A stretch of 64,000 bases of DNA, from assembly GCA_963700145.1 (NCBI GenBank), contig OY969474.1, positions 3,872,001 to 3,936,000 on the forward strand, read 5' to 3'. The notes beneath the pieces are model-generated. The model worked only from the letters and a program-made list of their open reading frames with translations, had not been told where the DNA came from and made no database searches. The translations under genes were made by a program, and so were the position numbers. Origin of the DNA: an uncultured Acidobacteriota bacterium. GTDB lineage: Bacteria; Acidobacteriota; Thermoanaerobaculia; Multivoradales; UBA5704. This document shows, one piece after another, positions 14,242-57,826 of the stretch; within the stretch, counting starts at the first letter, position 1; the number at the start of each line of letters is the position of its first letter.

Positions 14242-14378
14242 ATGTCTCCTCTTCCTGCTCGAGCCTGCAACGCCGATGCCTTCGGGCGACACGGTCTTTT
14301 AGCCCTGTGGCACTATGCGAGTGCGGGCGCCCCGCGCCGCTCCGGGCCGGGCTCCGACCCGACGGAGGGATGAATCCC

Positions 14379-14699
14379 ATGAAAGCTTTGCGGAAAGCGG
14401 CCCTCGGGCTGGCGGTGGTGGCGTGTCTGCTGGCGGTGGCCCCGGCCGCCTGGGCAGGGGCGATAGATACGTCGGCGCGGACGGACGCGGGCGGCTGGAT
14501 CGCTGGGTGGGTCGAGCGGATCGCCCGCTGGATGAGCTGGACCGATCAGCCGGGGCCTGGTGAGGGTGACGCTGGCCGGGTGCGGCCGGTGTTCGAGCAC
14601 GACAACTGCGGTATCGACCCCAACGGCGCGCCGAAGCCTTGCCCGCCGGGGATGGGTCCCGAGCCACCCGAGGGCTCCGGTGGCCCGTTGGGAGGCTGA
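14379..14699 (+). CDS. Small secreted protein/peptide precursor with C-GIDPNG-APKP-C motif
   Basis: RBS GGAGG; signal peptide ending AWA; Trp-rich amphipathic segment; Cys pair around GIDPNG; alternative start 14370. Confidence 0.7.
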   Translation: MKALRKAALGLAVVACLLAVAPAAWAGAIDTSARTDAGGWIAGWVERIARWMSWTDQPGPGEGDAGRVRPVFEHDNCGIDPNGAPKPCPPGMGPEPPEGSGGPLGG

Positions 14700-14742
14700 T
14701 CGCCGACGAGCGGACGCGCGATTCCGTATAAAATTGCTACCA

Positions 14743-16074
14743 GTGGACAACGAGCGCGAGCACTCGATTCCCGCCGACGTGCTGGCCCGCTTCGCAGCCG
14801 GCCTTGCGTCGCCCGAGGAGAGCCGCCTCGTCGCTCGCCACCTTTTCGCCGGCTGCGCCATCTGCATCCAGACTCTCTCCCTCGCCGCCTTCCCCGCAAG
14901 GAGCGGCGAGGGTCCCCCGCCAGCCGGCGCCTACGATCAGGCCTTCGCGGCCGTCGACCGTGACGTGGCCGCCGAGCTGAAGCGCCGCCACCTTCCGGCG
15001 CAGAAGCTGCTCGCCGAGCTCGATCGCCTGCCCACCGAGCGGCAAGAGCTCAAGGTCCGGAACGGCACGCGCTACGCCTCGCTGGAGCTGTCCGCGGCCT
15101 ACGTCGAGCGCAGCAACGAGGTGCGCTACCGGAACCCTGCCGAGATGCTCCGGTTCGCGCGCGTAGCGGTCGCCGCAGCGGAGGCTGCAGCTCGCGTAGG
15201 GTTGGAGCCCCGCTCGCTAGTCAATGACGCTCTGGCTCATGCCTGGGGGCAGGTGGCTAACGCACACAGAGTCCGAAGCGAGGTTCCTGAGGCAGGGCGC
15301 GCCTTTGTCCGGGGGGAGGAGTTTCTGCGAGCGGGCACGGGCGAAGCGACCCTTCGCGCGTGGTTTCTTGAGAAGAAGGCCTCCTACTATCGTCAGCGCC
15401 GCGATTTCCGAGCCGCGATGGAGCTTCTGGAAGAAGCAGTTCGTCTGCATTCGCGCTTACACGATCGCAGGGCAGAAGGTCGCGCTCTAATCAGCTTGGC
15501 CCTCGTGACTATCGTTAGTGGCCAGCCTGAAGCAGCTATCGCCCCCCTACAACGCTGTATTCCGATGTTCACCGGCCGGCCACATGACTTGGACCTCCTC
15601 TGGGCTGCAACGCAAAACCTGGTCTTCTGCTTCGTCGAGCTCGGTCAGCCTGCTCACGCCTACGACCTGCTCGCTTTCGCCGAGCCGCAGTTCAAGGAGT
15701 GCTCCGATGAGCTGGTCCACCTTCGCGTGGATTGGGTCAAGGGCAAGATCGAGAGAGAGCTCGGACTCTATGGCGCGGCGCAATTCCGGTTCGAGCTCGT
15801 GAGGGATGAATACCTACGCAGAGATTTGACCGCCGAGGTCGGGGCTGTCTCCCTCGATCTGGCTGAGGTCTACGCTCACCAAGGGCTCGCCGCGGAGCTG
15901 ATCCGCACCGTGGCTGACACGATCCCTCTCTTCCAGTCGCTCGGCGTGGGGCGCGAGCTGATCGCCGCGCTCCTGAAGCTCCAGGAGATCGCCCGCTCGC
16001 AGCAAGCCGCCGTCGCGCTGCTGCGCGAGGTGGCGAAGCAGTTCCAGGAAGACCTGCCGCAGCTCAGCCGTTAG
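14743..16074 (+). CDS. TPR-repeat protein with N-terminal zinc-finger-like motif (HLFAGCAIC)
   Basis: GTG 14743 after TAAAAT; H-x4-C-x2-C resembles anti-sigma zinc fingers; helical TPR-like repeats (AWGQVANAHR, AMELLEEA, EGRALISLA). Confidence 0.75.
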   Translation: MDNEREHSIPADVLARFAAGLASPEESRLVARHLFAGCAICIQTLSLAAFPARSGEGPPPAGAYDQAFAAVDRDVAAELKRRHLPAQKLLAELDRLPTERQELKVRNGTRYASLELSAAYVERSNEVRYRNPAEMLRFARVAVAAAEAAARVGLEPRSLVNDALAHAWGQVANAHRVRSEVPEAGRAFVRGEEFLRAGTGEATLRAWFLEKKASYYRQRRDFRAAMELLEEAVRLHSRLHDRRAEGRALISLALVTIVSGQPEAAIAPLQRCIPMFTGRPHDLDLLWAATQNLVFCFVELGQPAHAYDLLAFAEPQFKECSDELVHLRVDWVKGKIERELGLYGAAQFRFELVRDEYLRRDLTAEVGAVSLDLAEVYAHQGLAAELIRTVADTIPLFQSLGVGRELIAALLKLQEIARSQQAAVALLREVAKQFQEDLPQLSR

Positions 16075-16501
16075 GCAGCGGCGGCACTTCGGGCATCTCG
16101 CGGTCGAGCTCCGCGAAGAGGCGCTCGATCTCCTCGTCGCTGAAGATCCCCTTCTCCTTCAGTCTCCAGATCAGCACGCGGAGGCTCGCGTGCCGCACGA
16201 GGCGCGCGCTGAGCGGGTACGCCGGGTGGGGCGGCGCGGCCGCGGGCTTGCCGCGCACGTCGGGCGGGCCGTAGACCTCCTCGAAGAACTCCACCGGCGA
16301 GACGTCGAGCGCCGCGAGGATGCCGGCGATGTGCACGTAGCGCAGCTCGATCGCGCCGCTGAACACTTGCCGCAGGTAGTCGTGCCGCCGGCCGATGAGG
16401 AGCCCGACCTCGCGGAGCGACATGCGCTTGCGGCGGATGATCTCGCGCAACGCCGTTCGCACCCGAATCATTTCGGCGTCGGCCTGTTGGCTGAGATCCA
16501 C
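16064..16501 (-). CDS. XRE/Cro-like helix-turn-helix regulator
   Basis: LREIIRRKRMSLREVGLLIGRRHDYLRQVFSG...ILAALDVSPVEFF. Confidence 0.75.
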   Translation of the reverse strand: MDLSQQADAEMIRVRTALREIIRRKRMSLREVGLLIGRRHDYLRQVFSGAIELRYVHIAGILAALDVSPVEFFEEVYGPPDVRGKPAAAPPHPAYPLSARLVRHASLRVLIWRLKEKGIFSDEEIERLFAELDREMPEVPPLPNG

Positions 16502-16507
16502 GCCGGG

Positions 16508-16535
16508 ATTGTACCTCTAGTGTTGCGTTAGTCAA
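16508..16535 (-). promoter_or_regulatory. Sigma70-type promoter for the HTH gene (leaderless)
   Basis: TTGACT (16535-16530), 16 bp, TACAAT (16513-16508), 6 bp, then GTG start at 16501. Confidence 0.65.
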
Positions 16536-16621
16536 CAACAGTTCCGCTAGGTGGCACGTTGACATGTGGTCGATAGCTGTGCTGTCATCCACTTCGTGCC
16601 GAGCCTTTACACCTCTCTGCA

Positions 16622-17401
16622 GTGGCATCTACGCCGTTGGCCCACCTGAGCCACTTCGATGCGCTCTTCCTGCTCGCGCCGCTGCCGCGGGCCGAGCGGC
16701 GGCAGCTTGCGCACGCTCTGGTCTGCGATTCCTGCCGCGCGGTCCTCCGCGAAGTCCTCGCGGCCCAAACGCCTGCCGCCTCGCCTGAGACTCCCGCCTC
16801 CCGCCGTTCCCGCCCTCTCGACTACAGCGCCATGTGGACCGCCCTCGAGAAGAAGCTCGCGGCCGAGGTGCCGGAGATCTTCCGCGAGCGCGAAGCCGCC
16901 CAGCGCGAGCTGGAGAAGCTCCTGCGCCTGCGGCGAGACCAGCGCGCCGCCGTCGCGCGCCCCTGGCCTCGCTCGCCATCGCCTCCTCGACAAGAGCGCC
17001 GAAGTGACCGCCGCGGACCCGCGCGAAGGCGAGCACCTGGCGCGGCTGGTCATCACGATGGTGGGGAAACTCGACGTCGCGCGCGTGCCGGTGACGCTGC
17101 TCGCCGAGCTGACCAGCCAAGCCTGGGCGCTCGTCGGCAACGCGCGGCGGCACCGCCAGGACCTGACGGGCGCCGACTGGGCGTTCCAGCAAGCCCAGGC
17201 CCGCCTCGACCTGGCGACCGACCTCGCCGTCAACGCCACCTCTGCCGCCTCCTCTCCGAGCTCCGCCGCGAGCAGGGCCGCACCGAAGAAGCCCTCGCCC
17301 TCGGCGAACGGGCGCGCGTCCTCTTCACCCAAGTCCACAAGCTCGCCGATTCGACTTCCGGCCCGGGCATTCCGCCCGGTCCCGGTTCACAGGAGACGTG
17401 A
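16622..17401 (+). pseudogene. Second zinc-finger/TPR gene, shorter, with two compensating frameshifts
   Basis: HALVCDSC motif; middle part (SQAWALVGNARRHRQDLTGADWAF) lies in another frame and matches AHAWGQVANAHRVRSEVPEAGRAF of the 14743 protein. Confidence 0.65.
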
Positions 17402-17402
17402 C

Positions 17403-17618
17403 ATGGCCAAGCCCCAGAAACGACCCCCGACCCCCGTCACCGAACACCTGAAGGCCGAACGCATCCAGGTGCTCCTCGCCGGCCTGCCGGAATGGCGCGT
17501 CAGCGCCGTCCAGATCGCCGGCGGCGTCGTCACCCTCACCCTCACCACCGCCAAGACCGCCCGCGGGCTGACGAAGGAGGAGCTGGAGCTCGCGGCGGGC
17601 CTGGAGAAGGTGGCGTAG
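17403..17618 (+). CDS. Small protein resembling an internally deleted pterin-4a-carbinolamine dehydratase fold
   Basis: RBS AGGAG; LKAERIQVLLAGLPEW...VTLTLTT...GLTKEELELAA; central part appears missing. Confidence 0.45.
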   Translation: MAKPQKRPPTPVTEHLKAERIQVLLAGLPEWRVSAVQIAGGVVTLTLTTAKTARGLTKEELELAAGLEKVA

Positions 17619-17633
17619 ATGCTCCGCGGAGGC

Positions 17634-17843
17634 CTGGAGATGTTTTCCCAAGGCTCGGGAATCAATCTCCAGCCGCTCAAGATGCGTCTCCAAGCCCCGG
17701 AGATATATCTCCAGGCCTTGGAGATGGATTCCGAGCCGTTGGGAATCGATCTCCAAGCCCTTGGAATCGATCTCCAACCCCGGAAGATCGATTCCCAGGC
17801 ACCGGAGATCGATCTCCAGCCTCCGGAGATGTATCTCCAGCGC
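17634..17843. repeat. Tandem array of 10 x 21-bp degenerate repeats with palindromic core
   Basis: Units start every 21 bp from 17634; consensus yyGGAGATCGATCTCCArscs; core GGAGATCGATCTCC is self-complementary. Confidence 0.9.
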
Positions 17844-17925
17844 CTCCCAGACGAATTCCCGCCGCGCGGAGTCGGTCTCCGCGCCCACTCTCCACCAACT
17901 TCCGACTCAGACAAGGAGTTTTCCC

Positions 17926-18321
17926 GTGCCAGAGAACTTGGGAGAGAAGCTCAAGACCTGGAGGACCCTCGCGGAGGGCATCAAGCCCCGCCTGGAAGAG
18001 ATCCCTCTGCTCCGGGAGGACCAAGCCGAGCTCGCCGCGCTGGTCCTGGAGATCGACGCCCTCATCGACCGGGGCGATCAGCATGAGGCCCGCCTGCGAG
18101 AAACCAGCCGGAAGCGCACGCAGGCGGAGGCCCGCGCGGCCGAGCTCCATGGCCGCGTGGTCTTCGTGCTGAAGGGCCACTACGGCAAGCGCGCCCTCCT
18201 GCTCCACGAGTTCGGCGTCCAGCCCCACGCCCTACCCGGCCCGAAGAAGGAGGAGACCACGCCCCCCGCTCCGACGCCGGCTCCCGCCTCCCAGGAGCCG
18301 ACCCCCGATTCGGGGGCTTGA
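17926..18321 (+). CDS. Hypothetical helical protein
   Basis: RBS AAGGAG then GTG; coiled-coil-like body ending LKGHYGKRALLLHEFGVQP and a Pro-rich tail. Confidence 0.7.
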   Translation: MPENLGEKLKTWRTLAEGIKPRLEEIPLLREDQAELAALVLEIDALIDRGDQHEARLRETSRKRTQAEARAAELHGRVVFVLKGHYGKRALLLHEFGVQPHALPGPKKEETTPPAPTPAPASQEPTPDSGA

Positions 18322-18336
18322 TCGCGGAACACAACG

Positions 18337-18369
18337 GCCGCCGGCGGAGATCTGACCTCCGCCGGCGGC
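18337..18369. terminator. GC-rich hairpin
   Basis: 13-bp perfect stem GCCGCCGGCGGAG/CTCCGCCGGCGGC, 7-nt loop, no U-tract. Confidence 0.45.
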
Positions 18370-18403
18370 GCACCGCTCTCTCACAACACGGCGCGTCGAA
18401 CGA

Positions 18404-18805
18404 ATGGAGGTTCTCGAATGCCCGCCCCGAAGCAAGAGCCGCCCGCTGCCAGTGGCGTTCCGCGAGACCTTCGCGGCCCTGTTCCCCTACACCCCGCTGC
18501 AGCACAGTTTGGGCAGTCTCTTGGCGAGCTTGGCCGAGTTCGCCGCGTCCCTGCCGGCCTTGGAGCCGCCCGGCGAGGTGACGCAGATGGAGACCGCGCT
18601 GCGCGCCGCCGCCGCCGACCTCCGCTACCTCGAGCGCTTCCTCTCCGCGCTCGGCCGCCAGGCCTCCGACCGGAAGCTCCTCCAGACCGACCGCCAGCTC
18701 GCCCGCGGCGCGGGCCGGCTCGTCGTCCGGCTCGGCGCCGCCGCCCGAGCGATCGACGAGATGGTCGACGCGGCCCAGGCGGCCCGCCGCTCGGAGGCCG
18801 GGTGA
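18404..18805 (+). CDS. Hypothetical helical protein
   Basis: Host-like codon bias, amphipathic helices; start uncertain. Confidence 0.55.
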   Translation: MEVLECPPRSKSRPLPVAFRETFAALFPYTPLQHSLGSLLASLAEFAASLPALEPPGEVTQMETALRAAAADLRYLERFLSALGRQASDRKLLQTDRQLARGAGRLVVRLGAAARAIDEMVDAAQAARRSEAG

Positions 18806-18885
18806 TGGCCCGCGCCGGCGCCCACGTCGCCCTCCAAGCCCGCCTCGCCGCATGCCTCAGCGGCGAGGGCTGAGGAGGTCTCCCC

Positions 18886-19625
18886 ATGGACCGCACGACG
18901 AACGCCGCCCTCCGCCTCCACCGCATCCTCCTCGCCCTGCGCGACGCGAGCCGCGAGGGGCGCCCCATCCGCCAGGTCCTCGCCGAGGTCTTCGAGCTCC
19001 AGCCGGACGACGACCTCGCCCTCCGCCGCCGGCTCCTCGCGGTCGACGACCTCTTCGCCGAGTCCGAGGCCGCGATCCGCTGATCCCGGGCGTCGACCTC
19101 CAGCGCCACCTCCGCCACTTCCCCGCGGCCAGGAAAGCCCTCCTCGGCGCCCGCCTCGACCAGGACTCTCGCCGCTACCCCCCGTTCCAGGAGGCTCTCG
19201 GCGAGGCCGTCTGTAGTCCGTCGAGTTCTGCGGCGCGCGAATCGCCGAGGAGTTCCCCGAGACCGCCCTGGCGACCGACGATCCTGGCCGAGGTCGAGGC
19301 CCGGCTCAACGCCCTCTTCGCCTTCACCGCCAGCGCCGAGCTCGACCCCGCGCTCCGCCAGGTCAGCCTCGACATCCTGCAGACCCTCCGCGCCGCCCTG
19401 ACCGACTACCGCATCCACGGCGCCGCCGGCTTGAAAGAGGCCGTCGAGCAGGCGGTGGGCAAGCTCACCGTCCACTACCTCCGCGCGGAACAGGGCGCCC
19501 GCCTCGACCTCGACCAGCTCGAGCGGCTCCTCGACCTGATCTTCAAGTTCGAGGCGCTGTTGGCCAAGGCGTCCGTCTACCTCCCGGCCCTGACCGAGTA
19601 CCTGCCGAAGCTCCTGGGGGCCTGA
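18886..19625 (+). pseudogene. Hypothetical protein, frameshifted
   Basis: RBS GAGGAGG, ATG 18886; frame stops at 19083 but coding-like sequence (LIPGVDLQRH...LPKLLGA) continues in a shifted frame. Confidence 0.6.
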
Positions 19626-19629
19626 CGCG

Positions 19630-20175
19630 ATGGCCGAGTTGCGCTGGCTCCTGACCAGCCGCACCCTGATCGGCGTCCTCCACACGACCGAAGGCGACAC
19701 CGTGGAGGCGGCTGGCGCACGCTCCGCCAGCAGAACGCCGCCCCCCACTTCATCGCCGGCGAGCACCAGATCGTCCAGTGCCGGCCGCTCAACGTGCAGG
19801 CCTCCACGCTGCGGCCGGGCAGGAACAACACCGCCAACGTCCACGCCCAGATCCAGATCGAGATGGTCGCGCGGAGCCGGCAGGGGTTGTGGCTGCCGAA
19901 GGCCGCGACGCTGGAGCCGACCGTCGCCATCCTGGCCTTCTGCGAGAGACCCTCGGGATTCCCTTGAGAGTGCCGAACGACTGGCCGGACGACTGCTCGG
20001 ACATGCCGCTGCCCTGGCCGCGAACAACCGGCGGCGCAGGCAGGCGCAGCGGGGCTTGTGGCCCAAGGAGAAGGGCTGGTGGATGCACCTGGAGGTGCCC
20101 TACCCGGGGCCGACGTGGCACTGGGACTGCGGGGCGGTGCGGAGGACGAGGCTTCTTGCGCTGGCCAGACAGTAA
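19630..20175 (+). pseudogene. N-acetylmuramoyl-L-alanine amidase-like (phage endolysin type), frameshifted
   Basis: GVLHTTEG, then APHFIAG..IVQCRPL..QIEMV in another frame, then HLEVP..HWDCGA. Confidence 0.65.
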
Positions 20176-20187
20176 ACTTCACAGGCC

Positions 20188-20559
20188 ATGAGCGAACCCA
20201 CGACCACCGCATCCTTCTTGCCATGCCCGTTCTGCGGGACTGATGCAGCGGTCCCCATGGGCAGGGGTGACGCAGGCCAATCCCGATTCTGTCCGTCCTG
20301 CGGCGCAGTTGGCCCGCTCGCGGGCAGTAAGGAAGGAGCGGTTGAGGCCTGGAACCGCCGCGCCTACGGCTGGCACAGCGTGGAGGACCGTCTTCCAGAG
20401 GGCGACGGCGCCGAAGTCGAATACCTTATCTTATTTGGCAGTCGACCTGAGCGCTACTCGCCAGCACTGGAGAGGATGGAGCTTGGTATGACAGCAAGGG
20501 CTTGTTCTGCGGAACGTGACTCATTGCTGGCACTTCCCGCGCTTCCGGCGAGACCTTGA
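20188..20559 (+). CDS. Lar (restriction alleviation)-like zinc-ribbon protein with DUF551-like tail
   Basis: LPCPFCG...CPSCGAVGP...AVEAWNRRA, then WHSVEDRLPE; tail looks frameshifted. Confidence 0.7.
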   Translation: MSEPTTTASFLPCPFCGTDAAVPMGRGDAGQSRFCPSCGAVGPLAGSKEGAVEAWNRRAYGWHSVEDRLPEGDGAEVEYLILFGSRPERYSPALERMELGMTARACSAERDSLLALPALPARP

Positions 20560-56274: not shown

Positions 56275-56391
56275 GGGCGGTCTCCTGTCGGCGGATTAGA
56301 CACCTCACCGGGGGCAAAGAAAACCGCGCTTCCCGGGCGGGCCTCCCTCCAGGCTCCGCTAGGAGTAGTCTTGAGTCTCTGAGGCTCAACT

Positions 56392-56868
56392 ATGGCACCT
56401 CTCATCGTCCTGATCGTTATGACGCTTCTAGCGCGGCTCGCCGGGCAGCTCGGGGTGGGCGCGCTGCGGGATTGGGCGGCGGCGACGCGGGTGGGGCTGG
56501 CGGTGATGTTCTGCTTCACCGCCGCCGCGCACTTCAACGCCATGCGGCCGGACATGGTGCGGATGGTCCCGCCGTCGGTGCCGGCGCCGGAGCTCATGGT
56601 GACGTTCACGGGGGTGTGCGAGATCCTCGGCGCCATCGGGCTGCTCGTGCCGCGCACGCGGCGCCTCGCGGCGGTGGCGCTGATCGTCTTCCTCGTCGCG
56701 GTGCTGCCGGCGAACATCCACGCCGCCATGACCGGTGGGACGATCGGCGGCGAGCCGGTGACCCCGCTGGTGCCGCGGATCGCGCTGCAAGCGCTGTTCA
56801 TCGCGCTGATCTGGTGGTCGGGCATCTATGCGGAACATAAGCGCCTCGGACCCGATCGTGCGGCCTGA
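56392..56868 (+). CDS. DoxX-like membrane protein
   Basis: AHF..MVPP..TGVCEILGAIGLL..PANI. Confidence 0.85.
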   Translation: MAPLIVLIVMTLLARLAGQLGVGALRDWAAATRVGLAVMFCFTAAAHFNAMRPDMVRMVPPSVPAPELMVTFTGVCEILGAIGLLVPRTRRLAAVALIVFLVAVLPANIHAAMTGGTIGGEPVTPLVPRIALQALFIALIWWSGIYAEHKRLGPDRAA

Positions 56869-56873
56869 CTGGC

Positions 56874-57087
56874 TGGTTGCCGGTGCGGCGGGCATCTACA
56901 GCATGAAGATCGACGAGTCGGGCAACGTGACCGACGTGCGCGTCGAGCGCCGCGGCCATCCGGAGGTGGACGAAGGCCATCATGGCCGCCGGCCGCCCTC
57001 GAGCAGTGGCGCTACAAGCCGGCGACGCGCGACGGCAAGCCCATCGCCGTGTGCTACACGCAGTCGTTTCGGATCCACTATCGCTAG
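56874..57087 (+). pseudogene. TonB C-terminal domain fragment, frameshifted
   Basis: IDESGNVTDVRV, then ALEQWRYKPATRDGKPI in another frame; GGCCGCC tandem duplication at the break. Confidence 0.6.
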
Positions 57088-57088
57088 C

Positions 57089-57826
57089 ATGCGACCGGCC
57101 GTGATCGACAGGTTCTTCCCCGAAGGCCGCGAGCAGTGGGAGACGTCGCCGGAGTATCGGCAGCGGCGGCAGGAGGCGATTGCCGCCGTCCGCGCCCGCT
57201 ACGCGCCGCTCCTCGCCGGCGCCGGCCCCGTCCGCCGTCTCTGGCTGTGGTGGCAGCGCCGGCGCGCCGTCGAGCGCGAGCTGGAGACGCTGTCGCCGAC
57301 GGACGCTTGCTTCCTGATGGCGCCTTCCTCCGCGGACCCGAGCCCGATCTCGACCGCCGTCGACTTCCACGGCTGGCGCTTCCTCGTGAACCGGGAGGCG
57401 ACGGCCGCCGCCTATGCGGCGAGCAGCTCGCGCGGCGCGGAGGACTGCTCCTGCGCTCACTGCCGGAACCTCATCCGGCAGCGGGAGCGCGAGCTTCCCT
57501 CGGAGCTGCTCGACTTCCTCCGGCGGGTGGGCGTCGATCCCAAGAAGGAGGCGGAGGTCTGGGAGGGCGGCGGTCTCGAAGACGGCCTGTCGTTCAACTC
57601 AGGCTGGTGGCACTTCATCGGCGAGGTCGTCGCGACCGGCGAGGAAGTCATTCCCCTGGAGCCCAACGCGGGGGCCCTGGGCAAGGACTGGACGGTCTTC
57701 TTCCTTCCGGGCGAGACTTCGCTGAAGCTGTCCACCCTCCCCAGTGCGCCTCTCGTGCAGGTCGAGTTCACCGCCAGCCTTCCGTGGGTCCTCGAGGAGC
57801 CCTATCCCGAACCCGCCCCCACATAG
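57089..57826 (+). CDS. Hypothetical protein (possibly two genes read in frame, second start 57317)
   Basis: Second half has CSCAHCRN, GVDPKKEAE, GWWHFIG, LPWVL. Confidence 0.55.
   Translation: MRPAVIDRFFPEGREQWETSPEYRQRRQEAIAAVRARYAPLLAGAGPVRRLWLWWQRRRAVERELETLSPTDACFLMAPSSADPSPISTAVDFHGWRFLVNREATAAAYAASSSRGAEDCSCAHCRNLIRQRERELPSELLDFLRRVGVDPKKEAEVWEGGGLEDGLSFNSGWWHFIGEVVATGEEVIPLEPNAGALGKDWTVFFLPGETSLKLSTLPSAPLVQVEFTASLPWVLEEPYPEPAPT

Follow-up and report, generated by a model that had tools for sequence, protein, structure and literature searches.

We analysed a 64,000-nt window, positions 3872001-3936000 of a single contig (OY969474.1, assembly GCA_963700145.1) from an uncultured Acidobacteriota bacterium, around an array of 21-bp repeats and the gene downstream of it, here called Y; positions are those of the window unless marked as genome positions. 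The array comprises ten head-to-tail units, and their cores keep one register without insertions or deletions, as a preliminary description of this DNA had stated. Tandem Repeats Finder (TRF) reported a period of 21 (17654-17841, 9.0 copies) along with periods of 42 and 63 at higher order; its alignment adds indels, which the plain 21-bp register does not need. The palindromic core of the preliminary description stood in part: the units are built on the dyad GGAGAT-NN-ATCTCC, but an exact palindrome is present in only one of the ten (at 17804), and three deviate from the 14-mer GGAGATCGATCTCC at more than three positions. Allowing up to three mismatches, this 14-mer matches 15 times in the window, seven of these inside the array at 21-bp steps, against an average of 5.24 and at most 12 matches in 100 shuffles. 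Across the wider family the central pair of bases is mostly CT or AG (mutual information 0.45), representing a single unit, short of perfect symmetry, in its two orientations. One site per two helical turns puts all the sites on one face of the DNA. The units abut without spacers, also as described, just 7 variable bases separating the cores, and a CRISPR array was rejected, since unique spacers are missing and the units abut. The G+C content is 57% in the array versus 71.5% in the genome. Downstream, an AAGGAG ribosome-binding site and the GTG codon at 17926 lead the Y gene, whose product is predicted to be helical, in agreement with the preliminary description.

A census of the complete contig (5,455,767 bp) detected many more such arrays. 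The pattern GGAGAT-NN-ATCTCC occurs in 18 strict 21-bp blocks of the genome, corresponding to 16 arrays of 3-15 units each because two arrays are split by insertion elements. Period 21 was the commonest in whole-genome TRF output (286 of 1049 rows), and filtering retained 121 non-coding phased arrays (period 21, n = 91; 20, n = 18; 42, n = 11; 63, n = 1), with a total of 26 kb, a median length of 211 bp, a median G+C content of 66% and more than 20 core families. The array length has its mode at 210-251 bp (38 of the 121) irrespective of family. The cores of other families, among them GGAAGCTTCC, GGATGTATCC, GTATCAG-CGC-CTGATAC and CAAGCGTAC, are mostly dyad-symmetric. About 18 arrays have a strict 20-bp period (e.g., CGGGCGCTCCCGCACCGAAA), and two of them lie upstream of Y paralogs, suggesting that the period is a property of the family and not of the genome. 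Arrays of the GGAGAT-NN-ATCTCC family seem crowded at 2.0-4.3 Mb, but cumulative GC skew gave no clear origin or terminus against which to read this.

The Y genes and the phased arrays are linked. A Y profile search of the genome detected 16 paralogs, those at genome 3387763 and 2032990 among them. For 14, TRF placed a phased array 36-132 bp before the profile match, and the remaining two have a degenerate array visible in the 21-bp register; the linkage proposed in the preliminary description thus extends to all 16 homologs. Among the protein families adjoining arrays, Y is found at 14 arrays and the next-largest cluster at three. The genome holds sixteen gene-plus-array pairs and about a hundred gene-less arrays. 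For family assignment 123 arrays were clustered by sequence alone, giving ten families of 13, 12, 7, 7, 6, 6, 5, 5, 4 and 4 members and then smaller ones. All ten of the largest include a Y-linked array, an outcome that random assignment of the 16 labels achieved in 0.1% of 200,000 trials (P = 0.001). In total, 79 of the 123 arrays fall in families that have a Y-linked copy. With a 16-array family and with the Y linkage, the studied array is neither unique nor unlinked to a gene family.

The array and its gene also vary together between paralogous loci. They belong to a ~5.9-kb cassette that the genome carries, complete or partial, at five places (the other copies at genome positions 3384129-3390220, 3103465-3110327, ~2031228-2034591 and 3203809-3206110), and no transposase was seen within 14282-20168. 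Aligned with the copy at 3384129-3390220, the cassette is 85% identical up to 17614, gives no alignment over 17615-17940, is 78% identical over Y and the next gene, Z, and reaches 92% further on. The small protein H145 is 98.6% identical between these two copies and Y 59.6%, and the array cores differ; Y is the most diverged gene between the paralogous cassettes.

Comparison with other genomes detected a similar co-occurrence at the level of lineages. The two-unit GGAGAT-NN-ATCTCC pattern was present in all four other genomes of the genus and absent from 32 genomes of the family's other genera and from 24 representing other families of the order. In a public genome collection 17 of 29 matching stretches were on contigs titled Thermoanaerobaculia; of the other 12, two are real 21-bp arrays with the core GAGAT-NN-ATCTC in unrelated organisms (see the table). 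The sister-species ortholog of the studied array has the same ten units at about 95% identity, a level that its flanks share. Y itself was detected in 10 of 11 genera of the family, in 50 of the 60 other genomes, with 4-48 copies each (g5-g7 and g9 are the Y-rich genera), and in none of the ten genomes of the remaining genus, g10. A sample of 400 genomes of the phylum included two others of the family, both with Y, and the 398 from outside the family gave a single weak match. Three Y-bearing genomes had 8, 5 and 4 phased arrays per 400 kb, while a Y-less g10 genome had none in two 400-kb samples (800 kb), a comparison that involves this one Y-less genome. The array is just upstream of Y at five of seven loci in genus g9 and 110-650 bp downstream of Y at five of seven loci in genus g3. 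By tblastn, Y had no match on 72,556 plasmids and none on phages. All 20 matches listed for parts of the stretch are soil or urban metagenome DNA contigs with at most a third of the sampled words, and no RNA data set was among the matches listed.

The conservation of the units was compared with what a DNA-binding site, an RNA hairpin and a coding repeat would each predict. In an alignment of 165 units, seven of which come from an unrelated array, mirror positions carry mirror frequencies (G156/A9 at position 4 and C149/T16 at position 11). Watson-Crick pairs between the arms are no commoner than independent columns predict (115/112, 121/112, 140/142 and 95/85, observed/expected), and the mutual information of pairs 1-14 to 5-10 is 0.00-0.04. 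In the five orthologous array pairs that align free of gaps, 23 of 431 sites changed at the 12 core positions versus 34 of 320 at the other nine (Fisher P = 0.008); over all eight pairs, some of them gapped, the counts are 60 of 803 and 111 of 599. The half-sites evolve half as fast as the centre and spacer in orthologous arrays. Symmetric, uncompensated conservation of the half-sites would be expected under a two-fold-symmetric reader of double-stranded DNA and argues against an RNA hairpin or a peptide. The stacked-hairpin RNA that the preliminary description had offered as one option is disfavoured by the same pair counts and by Rfam 15, whose covariance models gave no match at E <= 1 over 16000-20000.

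Another of its options, a heptad-repeat peptide (LEIDLQx) translated from the ATG at 17619, we consider hardly credible. This ATG directly follows the upstream stop codon, and the LEIDLQ frame has G or C at six of the seven third positions of the consensus unit. The open reading frames (ORFs) that had been reported across the array are there, four spanning it entirely and two more covering part of it, but they are expected of a stop-poor repeat in a genome of 71.5% G+C, and the nine arrays elsewhere in the genome that overlap ORFs are probably of the same kind. In the comparison with the ortholog, the LEIDLQ frame shows eight non-synonymous and four synonymous changes, with an indel directly behind the array. 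Variation tracks the dyad and not a 3-base period, as a comparison of codon positions with the palindrome demonstrated. Two sister arrays contain frame-breaking 22- or 43-bp steps, AG-type units introduce TAG, insertion sequences (ISs) split other arrays, and the ORF enters the Y gene in another frame. The array is non-coding.

The Y protein had no match in Pfam, NCBIfam, PHROGs or PADLOC, and family matches to RHH, HTH, ParB, ToxN/AbiQ or CsrA proteins were likewise not found. Its profile search returned 1263 clusters at E <= 0.001, ten of which were inspected and proved to be unnamed, with contigs of 0.7-8.5 kb as their source, and the ESM Atlas gave only unnamed clusters, mostly of Acidobacteriota. 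The AlphaFold model (mean predicted local distance difference test score 84) is all-helical, with helices at residues 5-18, 27-86 and 91-96, that is, a 60-residue central helix with an arginine-rich stretch within it and a disordered, basic, proline-rich tail. Residues R58, L82, G87, L93 and P100 are invariant and R64 nearly so; R58 and R64 are both in the arginine-rich stretch of helix 27-86. Foldseek detected no match to Y in the PDB at E <= 0.001, and the wide VIA-align search gave only generic long-helix matches (best Z 6.7).

We suggest, with about even confidence and from sequence comparison, that array and gene make up a two-part module, the array being its cis half: a lattice of dyad sites, all on one face, that would dock cognate Y dimers. 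This interpretation draws on the linkage at all 16 Y genes, the matching of families with paralogs, the co-variation within modules and the co-occurrence across genomes, together with the symmetric and uncompensated conservation, the half-site constraint, the preferred array size and the Y model. We infer that the reader of the lattice is a protein and that Y is this reader; its binding, the filament and the cellular role proposed here have the same standing. Dimers of Y, a predicted coiled-coil, arginine-rich protein encoded 82 bp downstream, would bind the half-sites GGAGAT and ATCTCC, and bound Y would polymerise along that face in a cooperative manner, forming a nucleoprotein filament or loop with a fixed size of 10-12 units. 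At the gene-linked copy the filament might also set the expression of Y itself. Each Y paralog would have its own array family, with one copy beside the gene and ~210-bp gene-less copies scattered between genes.

A protein-binding array resembling iterons or centromeres was the third option of the preliminary description and is the best fit of the three, by half-site symmetry and constraint and by gene linkage; with no ParA-like NTPase or Rep protein found, the label holds as an analogy and not as membership. Plasmid centromeres are arrays of this general kind: sopC, bound by SopB of F, consists of 12 copies of a 43-bp repeat, every one containing a short inverted repeat, while the parC sites of ParR systems have 10 x 11 bp in R1 and 20-bp repeats in pSK41. 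As in partition centromeres, a phased array of about 10-12 dyad sites adjoins, upstream or downstream, the gene of a small protein, which is dimeric there, and repeat sequence and protein vary together between relatives. Unlike them, there is no ParA, ParM or TubZ NTPase among the eight cassette and neighbour proteins scanned, and the system is chromosomal, with 16 modules and ~100 gene-less arrays per genome and with Y absent from the plasmids searched. Iteron arrays pair with a Rep initiator, and incA of P1 is a titrating array; the likeness is in helically phased repeats of ~20-22 bp beside the gene of the binding protein (Y being the candidate here) and in extra arrays that could titrate. 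The differences from iterons are that no Rep family was found among the proteins scanned, that the units are dyad-symmetric and not directional, and that the arrays number more than 100, from over 20 families.

Several observations weigh against the proposed module. No recognised DNA-binding domain is present in Y, and its fold searches gave no informative match. Two genera carry the array upstream of Y and a third carries it downstream, and this flip between genera means that a role as the operator of Y cannot be general. Of the 123 arrays, 44 fall in families that lack a Y-linked copy, and the family of the studied array has two Y-linked copies (genome 3889932 and 3204363), with two intact Y genes and not one. 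Four Y paralogs, each ~60% identical to the Y at 17926, accompany three different cores, so no specificity code is visible. Pair 3-12 of the unit alignment has a small excess of compensated change (G-C seen nine times versus ~4 expected), and the admixture of an unrelated array in that alignment, as well as the single genome behind the Y-less comparison, should be counted on the same side.

The turnover of the arrays has been analysed by comparison with sister species and within the genome. Arrays have been gained and duplicated as entire units, and some have been interrupted by IS elements. Between two genes, at an orthologous site where this genome has ~25 bp and no array, a sister species carries an array of 11 units. 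A ~225-bp block recurs with 88% identity at two unrelated loci whose flanks are also unrelated, beginning at one of them at the stop codon of the neighbouring gene. An IS256-family element (a 401-aa Transposase_mut protein, E = 1e-86, with inverted ends) splits a sister array at genome 85018-86380 with the 8-bp target duplication GTCTTCCA; the array is intact in the sister species. Another sister array is split at genome ~2566540-2570340 by a ~3.8-kb element with the ends GGTACTGTCCTA.TTAGTTTCC and the 8-bp duplication CCTGGCCT, carrying an IS1-like DDE transposase, an HTH_3 protein and an SDH-type ClpP-like protease. An array of another genome (G004) was tried with window 56329-57094 as a filled/empty pair and rejected as not clean.

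Such turnover could reflect a selfish element without host function, in which gene plus array would be autonomous and the gene-less arrays, moving as ~220-bp blocks, non-autonomous, as in the pairing of repetitive extragenic palindromic (REP) elements with REP-associated tyrosine transposases (RAYTs) or of miniature inverted-repeat transposable elements with a transposase. The gained 11-unit array and the duplicated block speak for it, as does the gene-linked copy in each of the ten largest families. Two gene-less arrays from the family of the studied array (genome 3138510 and 4237425) retain the leader, ribosome-binding site, ATG and ~15 codons of Y. The contexts of 90 arrays (46 tandem, 20 convergent, 15 divergent and 9 ORF-overlapped) also distribute roughly as the intergenic background (1653 tandem, 460 convergent and 460 divergent), the gene calls for these counts coming from a crude GC3 filter that covers ~76% of the genome and is not a gene finder. 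Against this, Y has no nuclease, recombinase or transposase motif or family match, and neither target duplications nor terminal inverted repeats were recognised at array ends, judging from one filled-versus-empty site and one duplicated block with diverged flanks. The core constraint in orthologous arrays is unexpected of pure junk, and from one species to another, orthologous arrays retain their ten units at 95% identity. We consider a purely selfish origin rather unlikely; it is compatible with the module and overlaps with it, as Y must still recognise its arrays.

The closest mobile counterpart, REP and bacterial interspersed mosaic elements (BIMEs) served by a RAYT, was rejected for want of a Y1 transposase and of stem covariation: Y1_Tnp (PF01797) had no match in the 5.46-Mb genome, while the same search was positive in six of 14 control genomes. 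The part of the published account of these elements considered here describes the association of REP/BIME with the RAYT (Y1) transposase (PMC3733652). The likeness is in short palindromic intergenic repeats that form families, with a gene-linked locus and many dispersed and clustered gene-less copies; unlike REP, the consensus unit has no GTAG/CGTC tag, and phasing at 21 bp is strict and array size fixed.

We also weighed a role of the array as RNA, transcribed as leader or trailer of Y or as a separate molecule and acting as a sponge or antitoxin-like partner of Y, in the manner of CsrB/CsrA or ToxI/ToxN. The repeats are directly upstream of Y in this genus with a G+C-rich hairpin between them, X (the ORF before the array), the array and Y share one strand, and no promoter-like site was found before Y. 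In three related modules the asymmetric CT centre is oriented alike relative to Y. The array folds as RNA at -149.4 kcal/mol (z = -8.8 versus shuffles), but any palindromic repeat gives such a strong fold. The arms lack compensatory changes, and symmetric GGAGAT/ATCTCC conservation is unexpected for single-stranded recognition. Gene-less arrays occur in every orientation to their neighbours, divergent promoter regions included, and in another genus the array is downstream of Y; there is no Rfam match for the array and no ToxN or CsrA family match for Y. An RNA role is distinctly improbable on this balance. In type III toxin-antitoxin systems ToxI repeats lie upstream of toxN, in units of ~36 nt. 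The studied locus is like them in having a tandem array directly upstream of a small protein gene, a hairpin between the two, and repeats that differ between homologs. It is unlike them in its all-helical Y without a ToxN/AbiQ match, its 21-nt units, the downstream position in another genus and the dispersed gene-less copies.

We found no published description of such arrays or of the Y family in the literature searched, and the role of the two seems to be undescribed; the periods given in the portion of one preprint considered here (60-79, 18 and 5 nt) include none like the 21-bp array. If Y reads the lattices, they would constitute a large, lineage-wide and undescribed DNA-protein system with more than 100 arrays per genome, dozens of paralogous readers, a fixed two-turn period and a preferred array size. 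The system would then provide natural orthogonal pairs of DNA address and binding protein, and a test case for the birth, whole-block copying and phase-keeping of bacterial tandem repeats. As a tentative and wider conjecture, which we would not expect to hold in full, paralogous coiled-coil proteins throughout the family (Thermoanaerobaculia f1; 4-48 copies per genome, 10 of 11 genera) might each recognise their own 20/21-bp lattice family, the pairs seeding ~210-bp gene-less lattices all over the chromosome. This would amount to a self-propagating element of a new class that lacks a classical transposase, or else to a layer of chromosome architecture addressed by sequence, comparable in bacteria to satellite DNA and equipped with dedicated binding proteins. 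The arrays may also account for assembly breaks at such loci in these soil Acidobacteriota.

The remaining features of the locus are collected in the table.

Features of the array locus and 21-bp arrays detected in two unrelated organisms (window positions unless a contig is named)
Feature	Position	Strand	Remarks
Ten phased 21-bp units	17634..17843	.	14-bp dyad core GGAGAT-NN-ATCTCC and 7-bp variable spacer
G+C-rich hairpin	17864..17884	+	8-bp stem GCGCGGAG/CTCCGCGC, 5-nt loop, no T-run; between array and Y
Shine-Dalgarno AAGGAG	17913..17918	+	7 nt 5' of the GTG of Y; AAGGAG leader also before paralogs
Gene Y, 131 aa	17926..18321	+	GTG start 82 bp past array end; candidate array reader
ORF X	16659..17618	+	True start uncertain; ends ...LEKVA* 15 bp before array
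H145, small, weakly HTH-like	16064..16501	-	Transcribed away from array
Cassette, ~5.9 kb	14282..20168	.	TPR protein, H145, X, array, Y, Z, Z2 and one more ORF
Bacteroidales metagenome-assembled genome, array	334-520 of contig		8 units, 21 bp
Mesobacillus selenatarsenatis, array	397-520 of contig		6 units, 21 bp

The hairpin between the array and Y forms a closed stem on folding and is retained in the ortholog with a longer stem. ORF X has no family match in Pfam, NCBIfam, PHROGs or PADLOC, and its C-terminal ~70 residues are conserved (71-85% identical) at four paralogous loci. Relatives of H145 are found near seven of the 16 Y genes of the genome, and a sigma-70-like promoter for H145 was detected at 16535-16508. 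Between the stop codon of Y (18321) and the next ORF (18404), 18337-18369 is an inverted repeat with a perfect 15-bp stem, GCCGCCGGCGGAGGT-CAG-ATCTCCGCCGGCGGC, which may be a terminator or an extra binding site.

Directly after the cassette, 20188-20559 (+) encodes a restriction-alleviation protein of the Lar family (Pfam Lar_restr_allev, 2.8e-09; TIGR03655), a hint that the neighbourhood is phage-derived or mobile. Farther along the window, TRF detected a tandem repeat at 39624-40914 with a period of 330 bp (3.9 copies, 71% matches), probably a repeated protein domain. Elsewhere in the genome, 1078565-1093367 carries several CRISPR-like arrays with a common ~35-nt repeat, GTCGCAATCCCTCC.TGCTGATCAGGTCGTTTCC, and periods of 76-83 bp.
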